A stretch of DNA of 64,000 nt, taken from the NCBI GenBank assembly GCA_046351295.1, contig JAXLYT010000035.1, forward strand, positions 13,452 to 77,451, written 5' to 3'. A program made the translations under genes and the position numbers. This DNA is from Byssovorax sp. Lineage in GTDB: Bacteria; Myxococcota_A; Polyangia; Polyangiales; Polyangiaceae. A model generated the notes under the pieces. That model ran no database searches, had not been told where the DNA came from, and saw nothing but the letters and a program-made list of their open reading frames with translations. Below, piece after piece: positions 11,155-39,072 of the stretch. Each line of letters starts with the position of its first letter. Positions within the stretch are counted from its first letter, which is position 1.

Positions 11155-11796
11155 TCAGGGCAAGCCGGTGATGCGCAGGCCGGCCGTGCCCTTGTACTTG
11201 CGGTTCAGGTAGAGCAGCACCGGCGTGAGGCTCTCGAGCGCCACGGCGTTCGGCAGCGGGCCCGCGTCGAGGCCCTTGAGGCCGAGATCGGCGATCAAGG
11301 CGAGCACGGTGGCCTTCGCGGCCTCGTCGTCGCCGGCGATCAGCACGTCGCACTCGATCGCGTGATCGGGCTCGCCGAGGTGCGCCGAGCTCACGTGGTG
11401 CAGGGCCGCCACCACCTTCACCGTCGGGCCGAGCAAGGCCTGGGCTTCCATCGCGGCCGAGCGGCCCTCGGGGAGGTTCACGAGCGTCACCTTCGGGGGC
11501 TTGAGCGGCACGGTGATGTCGATGAGCACGCGGCCGGCGAGGTCTTCGGCGAGGCCCTTCAGCGTCTCGGCGTGCGCGGCGTAGGGCACGGAGAGGAGCA
11601 CGACCTCGGACTCGCGGACGCACCAGCCGTTGTCGCCGCCCTGGATGCCGGAAGCCTCTGCGGCGAGCTCCGCGGCGCGCGCCTTGGCCCGCTCTGCGTC
11701 GCGCGATCCGATGCGCACCTCGTGCCCTGCCCTGGCCCAGCGCATGGCGAGCCCTTTGCCTTCGCGTCCCGTTCCGCCGACGATCCCGATGCGCAT
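11155..11796 (-). CDS. fno: NADPH-dependent F420 reductase (F420H2:NADP+ oxidoreductase, Fno/NpdG)
   Basis: The N-terminus [27 protein letters not shown] carries a Rossmann GxGxxG motif. The protein is about 213 aa, the expected size. Confidence 0.8.
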
Positions 11797-11940
11797 CTCG
11801 ATCCTCCAGCCCGGGCGTTCGTCGCGTGGAGCGCCGCCGGGCGCGCGACTCTACCAATGCGCGGGCTTTACGTGGCCGGAAAACCGGGGTACTCCGCGGC
11901 CGAGGTGCGAGCTACGGCTGAGACGGGCGAGCGCCGCGCG

Positions 11941-12732
11941 ATGAACGTCCACTGCGGAGATCACCTCGAAATCCGGGCCCTCTCCGGCCTGCCTCTGATC
12001 GAGCCCGGCGACGATCTGGGCGCGATCGTGCTCGCCGCGCTCGCGCGGGACGGGCTCTCGCTGGTGGACGGCGACGTGATCGTGGTGGCCTCCAAGCTCG
12101 TCTCCCGGGCCGAGGGGCGCTTCGTCGATCTCCGCACGGTCGAGGTCTCGCCGGAAGCCGCGGCGCTCGCCGAGGAGACCGAGAAGGACCCTCGTCTGGT
12201 GGAGCTCGTCCTCCGGGAAACGAAGGCGATCTCGCGCAAGAGCAAGGGGGCGCTGGTGGTGCGTCACAAGCTCGGCTTCGTCTCGGCGGACGCGGGGATC
12301 GATCGGAGCAACGCGCGTCCGGTGGGCGCGCCCGAGGGCAGCGGGCCGTGGGCGCTGCTCCTGCCGGTCGCGCCGGATGCCTCGGCGCGGGCGATCCGCG
12401 AGGCGCTGGAGAAGGCCTCGGGCAAGACGGTGGGCGTGCTCGTCAGCGACTCGTTCGGCCGGCCTTTCCGGCTCGGCACGGTGGGCGCGGCGATCGGCGT
12501 GGCGGGCCTCCCGCCGGTGTGGGACCGGCGCGGCGAGCTCGACCTGTATGGCCGCCCGCTCGAGCACACGTTCACGGCGCTCGCCGATCAGGTGGCCGCG
12601 GCGGCCGATCTCGTGGCCGGGCAAGCGGCGGAGCGGCGGGGCGCGATCCTCGTCCGCGGCCTCTCCTTCGAGGCGGGCGAGCACTCCGCGGAGGAGCTTT
12701 ACCGGCCTCTTCCCATGGATCTCTACAGGTGA
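11941..12732 (+). CDS. cofE: coenzyme F420-0:L-glutamate ligase (CofE; archaeal-type, no nitroreductase domain)
   Basis: The motifs [17 protein letters not shown] and [12 protein letters not shown] match the CofE/FbiB N-terminal ligase domain. An alternative start at 11857 is possible. Confidence 0.75.
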
Positions 12733-12739
12733 TCGGGCG

Positions 12740-36392: not shown

Positions 36393-36496
36393 CGGTCGAG
36401 TACTCTAGCATGGGCAATGGGCCTCCGAGCAATCAAGCGCCGGCCGGGCTCACCGCCGGGGCTCCACCGCACGGTCCGACGTTCCAGGAAGCGCGC

Positions 36497-37795
36497 TCAG
36501 AGCTTGTCGGCGTCGATCGGCCGGGCGCGGCGCAGCTTCACGAAGCGGAAGGCTTCGTCGCGCGTCATCGAGGCGTAGGTGCCGAAGCGCGCGTCGGCGT
36601 CTTCCACTTGATCGAGCTGATCGAGCGCCTCGTCCTCGACCTCGGGCTCGCCGGCGAAGGAGCGCAGGATCGCGTAGCGCGTGTTCCTCTGCGCGGGCAC
36701 GCGCCCGGCGTCGCGGATGGCGCGGCGCAGGCTCGACGGTGACTGGAACTGCCCGTGCGAGGCGCCGGCCGAGGTCGAGATGCTCTCGTTGATCAGCGTG
36801 CCGCCGAGGTCGTTCGCGCCCGCGGCGAGGAGCATCCCCGCCATGCGCAGGCCCTCTTTCACCCAGGAGACCTGCACGTTCTTGAAGGTCGCGCCGAGCA
36901 TCAGCCGGCAGAGGGCGAAGAGGCGCAGCACCTCGTTGCCGGTGGGGCCGGGGCGGAGGCCGGGGATCATCCCCTTCTGCCACATGGGCGCCTCGTCGTG
37001 GACGAAGGAGAGCGGGACGATCTCGGTGAAGCCCCGGGTGTCCTTCTGGATCGAGCGGAGCAGATCGAGATGGGCGATGCGCTCGGCGTCGGTCTCGACA
37101 TGGCCGAACATGATGGTCGCCGTCGTCGGGAGGCCGACCTCGTGGGCCGTCGTGATGATCTCGATCCACTCGGCGGTGGTGATGCGGCCGGGGGCGATCT
37201 TGGCGCGGACCGTGTCGTCGAGGATCTCGGCGGAGGTGCCGGGGAGCGAGCCGAGGCCCGCGGCCTTCAGCTCCTGGAGGTAGGCGCGCGCGGGCATGCC
37301 CGAGAGCTGGCAAGCGTACTTGACCTCCTCCGGCGAGAACGCGTGTAGATCGAGCTCGGGCGCGGCGGCCTTGATCGTCTTGCAGAGGTCGATGTAGTAG
37401 CGGCCGCTCATCCCCGGGGCGAGGCCGGCCTGGATGCAGACCTCGGTGGCGCCGAGCGAGCGCGCTTCGAGGGCGCGGCGGACGATCTCTTCTTCGCTGA
37501 GGAAGTAGCTCTGCTCGGAGCGGTGACCGCGGGCGAAGGCGCAGAAGCGGCAAGCCTTGTTGCAGACGTTGGTGAAGTTGATGTTGCGGTTGACGACGTA
37601 GGTCACCGTGTCGCCGGCCTGCGCGCGGCGGAGCTCGTCGGCGACGAGGCAGAGGGCGGAGAGCTCGCGGCCGGTCACGGTGGACAGGCGGAGCGCGTCC
37701 GGCACGGAGAGCTCGTGGCCTTCGAGGGAGGCGTCGAGGATGCGCCAGATGTCGCGATCGAGCGAGGAGAAGAGGGCGTCGAGGGAGGAGGTCAT
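36497..37795 (-). CDS. cofH: FO synthase subunit 2 (CofH), radical SAM
   Basis: The radical SAM motif CNKACRFCAF is present. The protein is CofH/ThiH-like, 432 aa, and sits directly downstream of cofG. Confidence 0.85.
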   Translation of the reverse strand: MTSSLDALFSSLDRDIWRILDASLEGHELSVPDALRLSTVTGRELSALCLVADELRRAQAGDTVTYVVNRNINFTNVCNKACRFCAFARGHRSEQSYFLSEEEIVRRALEARSLGATEVCIQAGLAPGMSGRYYIDLCKTIKAAAPELDLHAFSPEEVKYACQLSGMPARAYLQELKAAGLGSLPGTSAEILDDTVRAKIAPGRITTAEWIEIITTAHEVGLPTTATIMFGHVETDAERIAHLDLLRSIQKDTRGFTEIVPLSFVHDEAPMWQKGMIPGLRPGPTGNEVLRLFALCRLMLGATFKNVQVSWVKEGLRMAGMLLAAGANDLGGTLINESISTSAGASHGQFQSPSSLRRAIRDAGRVPAQRNTRYAILRSFAGEPEVEDEALDQLDQVEDADARFGTYASMTRDEAFRFVKLRRARPIDADKL

Positions 37796-39072
37796 GGGCT
37801 GCCTTTGAGGAGGATCGGCGACGGCGTCCGCGACGAGGAGAGGCCGGGTTGCAGGCCCGGAGCGTCCGGCTGCGCGGCGGGTCGAGGCGTGAGATCGAGG
37901 GGGCCGATGCGCGTGCCCGCGGCGAGGCGCGCCTGGATGCGCTGGACGGGCGCGGCGAGCGCGGGATCGAGGAAGCCCGGGCGGTCGAGGTAGGCGTCGT
38001 AGATCGGCAGGCGCGGGCGCAGCGTGAAGCCGGCTTCTTCGCAGGCCGTGGCGAGGGCGTCGAGGTGGGGCCAGGGGTGGCGCGGGTTGATGTAGTCCGG
38101 CGTGACCGGCGAGATGCCGCCGAAGTCGTTGATGCCGGATTGAATGAGCAGGGCGGTGCTCGCCGGGTTGAGGTTCGGCGGGGCTTGCACGCTGATCGCC
38201 GGGTCGAGGATGAGGCGGCTCAGCGCGATGGCGTGCGCCATCTCGAAGTCGTCCGGCTCGAGCGCGCCGGCCATGGGGATGCCGGGGCGCGCGCGGAAGT
38301 TCTGGACGATGATCTCCTGGATATGCCCGTGCGCGCGGCCGATGTCGCGGATGGCGAGCAGGCTCTCGACCCGCTCGCGGCGGGTCTCGCCGATGCCGAT
38401 GAGGATGCCCGTGGTAAACGGGATGCGCTGGCGGCCGGCCTCCTCGATCATCGCGACGCGCTTCTCAGGGCGCTTGTCCGGCGCCTTGTGGTGCGGCATG
38501 CCCGGCTGGCAGAGGCGCGGGCTGATGTTCTCCAGCATGAGGCCGAGGCTGACGTTGACCGGCCGGAGGCGGCGCATGTCGTTCGCCGAGAGGATGCCCG
38601 CGTTGGTGTGCGGCAAGAGGCCGAGCGCGATCGCGCGCTCGCCGGCCCAGACGAGGTAGTCGACCGTGCTGTCCTGGCCGAGCATCGAGAGCTCGCGGCG
38701 GTACGCAGAGAACGCCGTCTCGGGCTTGTCCCCGAGGCAGAAGAGCGCCTCGATGCACCCTTGATCACGGGCGCGCCCGAGGTGATCTTCGACCTCCGCG
38801 GGCGACATGGTCCACGCGCCCTCCTGGCCGGGGGAGCGGCGGAACGAGCAGTAATCGCAGTGGTTGCGGCAGAGGTTCGTGAGGGGGAGGAAGACCTTGG
38901 GCGAGAACGTCAGGGTGCTGCCCCACGCGCGATCCCGGTACGCCGCGGCCGCTTCGAGGAGAGGCGCCAGATCGTCCGCGGGCAGGTCCGCGAGGGCGAG
39001 AGCGAGGTCGTCCGGGAGCGGGGCGCCGGAGGCGGCATGCTCGGCGAGGGCGCGGAGAGGGGGAGACAGCAT
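37792..39072 (-). CDS. cofG: FO synthase subunit 1 (CofG; 7,8-didemethyl-8-hydroxy-5-deazariboflavin synthase), radical SAM
   Basis: The radical SAM motif CRNHCDYCSF is present. It overlaps cofH by 4 bp. The start at 39072 has the RBS ggggagg 8 nt upstream. An alternative start at 39123 is possible. Confidence 0.8.
   Translation of the reverse strand: MLSPPLRALAEHAASGAPLPDDLALALADLPADDLAPLLEAAAAYRDRAWGSTLTFSPKVFLPLTNLCRNHCDYCSFRRSPGQEGAWTMSPAEVEDHLGRARDQGCIEALFCLGDKPETAFSAYRRELSMLGQDSTVDYLVWAGERAIALGLLPHTNAGILSANDMRRLRPVNVSLGLMLENISPRLCQPGMPHHKAPDKRPEKRVAMIEEAGRQRIPFTTGILIGIGETRRERVESLLAIRDIGRAHGHIQEIIVQNFRARPGIPMAGALEPDDFEMAHAIALSRLILDPAISVQAPPNLNPASTALLIQSGINDFGGISPVTPDYINPRHPWPHLDALATACEEAGFTLRPRLPIYDAYLDRPGFLDPALAAPVQRIQARLAAGTRIGPLDLTPRPAAQPDAPGLQPGLSSSRTPSPILLKGSP

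Follow-up and report, generated by a model that had tools for sequence, protein, structure and literature searches.

A Cof-type F420 gene set in a Polyangiaceae genome, probably split by an old benzoyl-CoA reductase insertion at a convergent operon junction

The 64,000-nucleotide stretch of Byssovorax sp. DNA analysed here (GenBank assembly GCA_046351295.1, contig JAXLYT010000035.1, positions 13,452 to 77,451), referred to as the window, carries genes for the biosynthesis of the deazaflavin cofactor F420 in two blocks that lie on opposite strands. Because the GC content of the window is ~70%, genes were called by third-position GC and frame plots and were then identified with profile libraries. 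A gene was assigned when its product scored above the curated NCBIfam (equivalog or subfamily) cut-off, with Pfam as a second check (Table 1). The arrangement proposed in a preliminary description of this DNA, in which cofE-cofD-cofC are accompanied by the F420 reductase Fno and an LLM-class oxidoreductase and cofH-cofG lie 22 kb away on the other strand, is borne out, as all of these genes exceed their cut-offs. On these profile scores the F420 gene set is confirmed as real and as being of the standard bacterial "Cof-type", and all seven assignments hold at the coordinates of Table 1. The genes cofE, cofD and cofC abut or overlap across 11941-14328, and the gap between the stop of cofC (14328) and that of cofH (36497) measures 22,168 bp. 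Looked up as exact proteins, CofC and CofH gave no entry; among cluster representatives, CofC (P0001) and CofH are 100% identical to proteins of a "MAG Byssovorax sp." (MAG, metagenome-assembled genome) encoded on a 114-kb contig, and the NCBI entries of the source MAG proteins already bear the correct F420 names.

CofG and CofH belong to the radical-SAM enzymes, and the concern raised with the preliminary description was that they might prove to be ThiH/HydG-like instead. This identity fails clearly on the scores. Both proteins lie above their own equivalog cut-offs and outscore there the paralogous MqnC, MqnE, ThiH, HydE and BioB models; a ThiH, HydG or Mqn identity was rejected, with ThiH reaching just 27-29 bits and MqnC, at 348.7 bits on CofH, staying under its cut-off of 428.1. 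The radical-SAM CxxxCxxC motif reads CRNHCDYC in CofG and CNKACRFC in CofH. The start of cofG is uncertain, with ATG codons at 39174, 39123 and 39072; counted in the longest form, its domain starts at residue 89. CofE covers only positions 10-243 of the 449-position FbiB model NF009810. As it matches only the ligase half of that model, CofE is the short form that lacks the nitroreductase domain, in agreement with the earlier description.

Table 1 Features of the F420 locus and of the gap between its two blocks, in order of position (scores in bits, followed by the cut-off of the model).
Feature	Position	Strand	Evidence or remark
LLM-class F420-dependent oxidoreductase, Rv3520c subfamily	10119-11147	+	TIGR03559 389.7 vs 335; PF00296
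fno/npdG, NADPH-dependent F420 reductase, divergent from cofE	11155-11796	-	TIGR01915 183.4 vs 149.8; PF03807
cofE, F420-0:gamma-glutamyl ligase, 263 aa	11941-12732	+	TIGR01916 250.1 vs 180.65
cofD, 2-phospho-L-lactate (or enolpyruvyl) transferase	12740-13663	+	TIGR01819 286.7 vs 257.45
cofC, guanylyltransferase, predicted 2-phospholactate (2-PL)/phosphoenolpyruvate (PEP) type	13660-14328	+	TIGR03552 149.1 vs 105
Perfect 14-bp hairpin, no U tract, putative cofEDC transcript end	14344-14379	+	starts 16 nt after cofC stop
had	14504-15805	+	NCBIfam 347 vs 338.65
oah	15811-16923	+	528.8 vs 464.45
dch	16896-17696	+	191.7 vs 292.5 (below cut-off); TIGR03189 is best match
bcrC	17693-18859	+	492.5 vs 421.15
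bcrB	18856-20184	+	680.9 vs 486.55
bcrA	20181-21539	+	554.4 vs 578 (just below cut-off)
bcrD	21536-22405	+	361.4 vs 312.85
GNAT, translationally coupled	22402-22881	+	last gene of 8-gene cassette 14504-22881
CDP-alcohol phosphatidyltransferase	22981-23955	+	PF01066; 79% identity in L018 and L019
GFA protein (double-GFA)	24007-24909	+	Pfam
PKD-repeat protein, 1490 aa	25010-29482	-	Pfam
Hypothetical, repeat-rich	29798-30499	+	
MVP (major vault protein) homologue, 956 aa, MVP shoulder and vault repeat domains	30566-33436	+	Pfam
Trypsin_2 peptidase	33689-34858	-	Pfam
448-aa protein, weak P-loop/STAND-like signals	35046-36392	-	
cofH, radical-SAM subunit 2 of FO synthase	36497-37795	-	TIGR03551 463.5 vs 374.1; PF04055, PF19288 (CofH_C)
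cofG, radical-SAM subunit 1 of FO synthase	37792-39174	-	TIGR03550 419.5 vs 213.35; PF04055

The window proteins were mapped onto 17 CofD-anchored loci; loci used for comparison are denoted by L numbers. In the species-representative genome set, the near relatives of CofD all come from Polyangia or Myxococcota MAGs and share at most 68% identity with it. In L001, L002, L003, L007, L008, L009, L010 and L013 the order fno-cofE-cofD-cofC is followed, after a gap of ~0-300 bp, by cofH-cofG on the opposite strand, and the order and orientation of cofC and cofH in these eight compact loci are those seen at both edges of the window gap. A neighbour-joining tree of CofE and CofD places the window, L018 and L019 in one clade that is nested among lineages of contiguous layout. 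Given these compact outgroup loci, at least eight in number, and the nested position of the clade that carries benzoyl-CoA reductase (bcr) genes, the contiguous cluster can be taken as ancestral and the bcr-bearing split as derived. The suggestion of the preliminary description that genes were inserted into an ancestrally contiguous cof locus is thereby upheld. By this comparison, the ancestral Polyangia layout was a compact cluster of two convergent transcription units, fno<- cofE cofD cofC -> and <- cofH cofG.

The left part of the gap (14504-22881) is a Thauera-type benzoyl-CoA dearomatisation module, in which five of the seven pathway genes score above the equivalog cut-offs. The two nearest relatives, L018/L022 (JGI contig Ga0373633_0000055, CofC 72% identical) and L019 (GCA_964269635.1, CofC 70%), have the same order as the window, cofC-had-oah-dch-bcrCBAD-GNAT followed by the CDP-alcohol phosphatidyltransferase gene. 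Amino acid identities between the window and these two loci amount to 70-85% for the cof genes and 79-92% for the bcr genes. At the DNA level, identity is 80-85% over window positions 11153-23921, and the homology ends at ~23921; on the cofG side, DNA homology to relatives runs to 39036. The JGI contig, which is 138 kb long and was recovered in several samples, has cofH-cofG on the minus strand 16.3 kb downstream of cofC. Behind the shared block it carries a 67-aa gene, a DUF4140/4139 gene and a 1307-aa Pkinase-AAA_16 gene, not the genes of the window. The preliminary description had held that a split found in relatives with the same intervening genes would speak for an ancestral layout rather than an insertion. 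The closest relatives do have the same bcr genes in the gap, whereas the genes of its right half differ. As the closest relatives share the split and the bcr genes, the insertion is old and ancestral to the clade, not recent. Immediately upstream of cofG, the window has a gene for a Uma2-family putative endonuclease (39195-39932), which gives weak PADLOC matches to the candidate system PDC-S03; in the relatives (L026, L030), this place is taken by genes for acyl-CoA dehydrogenases and an operon of the meta-cleavage pathway. The locus L030 (CofH 79%) was considered as a part of the same genome as L019, and this was rejected because the locus ends gave no meaningful match.

The same eight cassette genes, had to GNAT, occur in L031 and L032 with BcrB 87-88% identical, unrelated neighbours and no cof genes, and the CDP-alcohol phosphatidyltransferase gene is missing from both. 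Judged by this gene content, the eight-gene bcr unit is portable and the transferase gene is not part of the portable unit. The opposite event is recorded in L033, a 2.9-kb contig of a Minicystis sp. MAG (GCA_039925805.1, CofC 66%). A fusion of cofC with the final ~52 nt of the GNAT gene lies at positions 797-1001 of L033, followed by the spacer between the GNAT and transferase genes, the first ~55 nt of the transferase gene and then a DUF4139 gene that is 88% DNA-identical to that of the JGI contig. The last ~17 codons of CofC are replaced by the GNAT 3' end, giving the protein a chimeric C-terminus. Read from the sequence, these remnants are deletion scars of a lineage that once had the cassette and lost ~8.8 kb.

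The right part of the gap, from 23956 to 36496, has no DNA homology to L018, L019 or L026. Homologues of its MVP protein were found at 42 metagenomic loci with 56-90% identity. The possibility that the right half travels as a block was dropped, since the other window genes are never beside MVP in the ~30 loci long enough to show its neighbours. With 9.6 kb on the left common to the relatives, 12.5 kb on the right specific to the window and an MVP gene that has no conserved neighbours, more than one insertion event is indicated, as the preliminary description had allowed. Within the region, the segment 33451-36496 may be the latest addition; its GC content is 0.635, and its trypsin gene shows a third-position GC (GC3) of 0.72 and a codon distance of 0.19. 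PADLOC returned no matches for the Trypsin_2/P-loop pair, for MVP or for the hypothetical protein, and the idea that this low-GC pair is a known defence system was therefore abandoned. A 31-nt inverted repeat, 94% matched and rich in GCAAAG, lies between the MVP and peptidase genes (33495-33525 and 33560-33590).

Other lineages also differ from the compact layout at this point. The genes that follow cofC are LysR, XdhC and molybdenum hydroxylase genes in L004, two hypothetical genes spanning 2.9 kb in L005, which is a close sister of the contiguous L003, GAPDH and PGK genes in L006, and an AAA_22 gene with small open reading frames (ORFs) in L034. Judged from these layouts, the cofC-cofH junction is a hot spot, that is, a recurrent site of change. 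Because the gap lies between two convergent operon ends, insertions into it would interrupt no transcript and would thus be tolerated.

Taken together, the comparisons make it very probable that a standard F420 pathway is encoded by what was once a compact cluster, which an old bcr insertion split and lineage-specific changes later modified. In the ancestor that the window lineage shares with its nearest relatives, the unit had-oah-dch-bcrCBAD-GNAT, together with the CDP-alcohol phosphatidyltransferase gene, would have landed in the 3'-3' gap between cofC and cofH. The bcr-containing split presumably arose once, before the lineages of the window, L018 and L019 diverged. Thereafter the gap would have gained different genes in each lineage, in the window those for GFA, PKD, MVP, peptidase and P-loop proteins, and one lineage (Minicystis) would have lost the cassette by deletion. 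The split is presumably neutral in function, and the F420 pathway should still work.

The opposite polarity, in which the split is ancestral and the compact clusters elsewhere arose by secondary clustering, would agree with the presence of bcr genes after cofC in all three closest genomes and with the lack of cofH after cofC in L004, L006 and L034. It is extremely unlikely, however, because the compact convergent layout is found in at least eight separate lineages, placed on either side of the bcr clade in the tree, keeps the exact order and orientation of the two ends of the window gap, and would demand an eightfold independent convergence that is far less parsimonious; moreover, the cassette is self-contained elsewhere (L031 and L032). 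A different question is whether the adjacency is functional, with F420, via Fno or the LLM enzyme, serving in the electron supply to benzoyl-CoA dearomatisation or in one of its steps. The cassette follows right after cofC on the same strand and has been retained there in three lineages over substantial divergence, and no ferredoxin gene accompanies the bcr genes in the window. Yet class I benzoyl-CoA reductase takes its electrons from reduced ferredoxin, at a potential well below that of F420 (about -340 mV). The cassette does without any cof gene in L031 and L032, L033 deleted the cassette and kept its altered cofC, and common descent fully explains the retention within the clade. A strong hairpin also stands between cofC and had (Table 1); its fold energy is -42.3 kcal/mol (z = -3.64), a stability that no shuffled sequence out of 200 attained. 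It was found by folding only, as a scan of the cofC-had spacer for consensus promoters and terminators returned nothing. A functional link is thus very unlikely, and the proximity of bcr and F420 genes is most probably a historical accident.

It is equally improbable that the 22 kb arrived recently from a foreign donor, as a genomic island or mobile element. The atypical composition of the 33.4-36.5 kb segment and the inverted repeat at 33495-33590 would fit such an origin. The bcr block, in contrast, is indistinguishable from its host: of all blocks, it correlates best with the remainder of the window in tetranucleotide signature (r = 0.962), its GC3 is 0.86-0.96 and its codon distances are small, so that the compositional comparison advised in the preliminary description reveals no sign of insertion there. 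Its 80-85% DNA identity is shared with relatives whose cof genes are equally diverged. Domain scans of the block detected no integrase or transposase, and its ends carry no meaningful terminal repeats; the only inverted repeat that spans the boundaries (14272-14308 and 36492-36528, 73% complementary) was rejected, as it falls inside the coding regions of cofC and cofH and does not exceed what chance would give in DNA of 70% GC. ARAGORN makes a single tRNA call in the window, for a tRNA-Ala whose anticodon, AGC, is unusual (49802-49876). This candidate is outside the block, and Rfam at the gathering threshold found no tRNA or any other RNA family in the whole window; the call is probably a false positive in GC-rich DNA. 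The atypical Trypsin_2/P-loop pair likewise had no PADLOC or mobile-element matches. Of the marks of a genomic island, an integrase, flanking repeats or a tRNA, and deviant composition, only the last is seen, and that in 33.4-36.5 kb alone. Native composition and the lack of mobility signals fit an old, ameliorated or within-group acquisition rather than a recent foreign island, and these negative searches argue against a recent island for everything except perhaps 33.4-36.4 kb. That the two cof blocks were joined artificially, through a mis-assembled segment at 23.9-36.5 kb, is a thought suggested by the metagenomic source and by junctions (~23956 and ~36496) that occur in no other assembly. 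It is scarcely credible, since the JGI relative independently links cofC, the bcr genes and the transferase gene to cofH-cofG on one contig, the segment is host-like in composition and the joins have no repeats to mislead an assembler. As the JGI contig carries the same linkage, the overall topology is real.

Several points weigh against an old insertion into a working F420 cluster. Co-regulation is conceivable, as the cassette follows cofC directly on the same strand and three lineages have kept it there. The junctions at 23956 and 36496 are seen in this MAG contig only, so that an assembly join is possible there. The tree of CofE and CofD is a neighbour-joining tree that carries no support values, and the cofHG genes of the L019 genome were not located, so that the split there is read from the cofC side only. 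Within the cassette, BcrA lies slightly and Dch clearly below the equivalog cut-offs. Should PEP be the substrate of CofC in vivo, the pathway would need a dehydro-F420-0 reductase, which the 64 kb do not encode. Finally, the F420 chemistry of this organism is a prediction from its genes.

From family membership, CofG and CofH would act as separate radical-SAM enzymes that convert tyrosine and 5-amino-6-ribitylaminouracil into the deazaflavin FO. CofC and CofD would then attach a C3-acid phosphate linker, which is predicted to be 2-phospholactate or PEP and not 3-phosphoglycerate (3-PG), and the short CofE would add the glutamate tail. Fno, whose gene adjoins cofE in nearly all related loci, is expected to transfer hydride in both directions between NADPH and F420. 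Among the local gene products, the neighbouring Rv3520c-type LLM enzyme would be the most likely user of F420. Its assignment as a partner, already raised as a possibility in the preliminary description, gains from the finding that L001, L004, L012 and L019 have orthologues with 68-88% identity beside or close to their cof genes. The further suggestion that nearby P450 genes are F420 partners proved to be pure speculation, as no evidence linking them was found. The two cytochrome P450 genes (1296-2792 and 4450-5793) lie on either side of an esterase-like gene within 1296-5793. A gene for an ERG4/ERG24-family sterol reductase (8821-10104) is situated directly upstream of the LLM oxidoreductase gene, and L019 likewise has an ERG4/ERG24 gene upstream; this is consistent with sterol biosynthesis in Myxococcota.

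Three routes to the F420 linker have been described: the archaeal route from 2-PL, the actinobacterial and Chloroflexi route from PEP with a reductase (the FbiB C-terminal domain or FbiE), and one betaproteobacterial route from 3-PG (PMC8498797). The closest solved structure to the window CofC is 7P97 (E = 1.6e-19, versus 2.2e-11 for FbiD of Mycobacterium tuberculosis). A prediction of 3PG-F420 from this best PDB match was ruled out by the diagnostic residues: the CofC residues aligned to M91, C95 and H145 of 7P97 are L, V and E, and the position of S162 is occupied by G or R, depending on where a one-residue insertion is placed, and not by Ser. Lacking the 3-PG determinants, the window CofC is predicted to be of the 2-PL/PEP type. 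Among the ~45 ORFs scanned in the window, none encodes a nitroreductase-family domain or a dehydro-F420-0 reductase. The gene set, called complete in the preliminary description, is thus complete for the five core biosynthetic genes; beyond them the term does not hold, as CofC may use either 2-PL or PEP and the window has no FbiE-type reductase. The linker source or a reductase may be encoded elsewhere in the genome.

A bolder reading of the same features would be that Polyangia make F420 by an undescribed route, marked by unfused CofG and CofH, a short CofE, a CofC nearest to the 3-PG type yet with 2-PL/PEP residues and no FbiE in the cluster, and that the cofactor is perhaps wired to the bcr cassette in the Byssovorax/Minicystis clade. 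If true, this would imply a bacterial source of 2-phospholactate that is not yet known, a non-orthologous dehydro-F420-0 reductase or a new linker. Such a route is improbable.

With this locus, Polyangia (Myxococcota) can be added to the lineages with a full core F420 gene set. Neither the text of a 2021 review (PMC8498797) nor the searchable literature treats Myxococcota as F420 producers, the latter holding incidental mentions only. The statement in the preliminary description that F420 is uncommon outside Actinobacteria and archaea is outdated according to the same review, and more than 100 Polyangia-type CofH homologues were found; soil and sludge metagenomes abound in CofH homologues with 64-80% identity. 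F420 genes are widespread in Polyangia, and their presence here is not surprising. The junction provides a clean, dated example of how the space between convergent operons can act as a permissive landing pad, with a cassette gain, lineage-specific gains and one cassette loss. Neither the record for Polyangia nor the history of the junction changes the understanding of F420 biology: the gene set is an ordinary member of a textbook pathway, and the rearrangement history is well resolved but mundane. The practical value lies in a lead on which F420 variant myxobacteria make and on the role of the conserved Rv3520c-type LLM enzyme.

The bcr cassette may be the more interesting physiological lead. 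Class I benzoyl-CoA reductase is ATP-dependent and oxygen-sensitive, and the Polyangiaceae are a group usually regarded as aerobic. In this family, the cassette may point to anaerobic breakdown of aromatic compounds or to a biosynthetic role. For benzoyl-CoA reductase in Myxococcota, the searchable literature likewise yielded incidental mentions only. Within 54799-63733, a VgrG-like gene (Phage_GPD, Gp5_C) precedes three DUF2169 genes (57709-58989, 60594-61709 on the minus strand and 61742-63733); by these domains, this stretch is a neighbourhood of type VI secretion-related effectors and adaptors.

Compared with the class I benzoyl-CoA reductase pathway of Thauera aromatica, the window cassette has all seven genes (bcrCBAD, dch, had and oah), of which those for BcrC, BcrB, BcrD, Had and Oah score above the cut-offs. 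It differs from that type in BcrA and Dch, which are below the cut-offs, in having no adjacent ferredoxin gene, in the coupled GNAT gene, which is also present in L031 and L032, and in its Polyangiaceae host.

The F420 genes resemble the bacterial Cof-type clusters of Ney et al. (2017), as far as these are recounted by Grinter and Greening (2021, PMC8498797), in having the same five enzyme families, Fno and an LLM enzyme in the cluster, and a CofE that lacks the nitroreductase domain. The window differs from these clusters in its host, a member of the Polyangia in the Myxococcota, a phylum with no mentions in that review, and in the 22-kb interruption. CofG and CofH are unfused here, in contrast to the FbiC fusion of Proteobacteria and Actinobacteria (PMC8498797). 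With the mycobacterial and thermomicrobial PEP route (Bashiri 2019 and Braga 2020, as summarised in PMC8498797), the window CofC shares 2-PL/PEP-type residues (the L and G-type positions) rather than the 3-PG determinants. That route, in the same summary, includes the FbiB C-terminal domain or a stand-alone FbiE nitroreductase, whereas no nitroreductase-family gene is present in the 64 kb; such a reductase may be encoded at another site in the genome, or CofC may use 2-PL. The 3PG-F420 pathway of Mycetohabitans rhizoxinica (7P97; PMC8764529) provides the closest solved CofC homologue and also has a short CofE, yet the diagnostic residues M91, C95, H145 and S162 of its CofC are not conserved in the window protein, for which use of 3-PG is not predicted.

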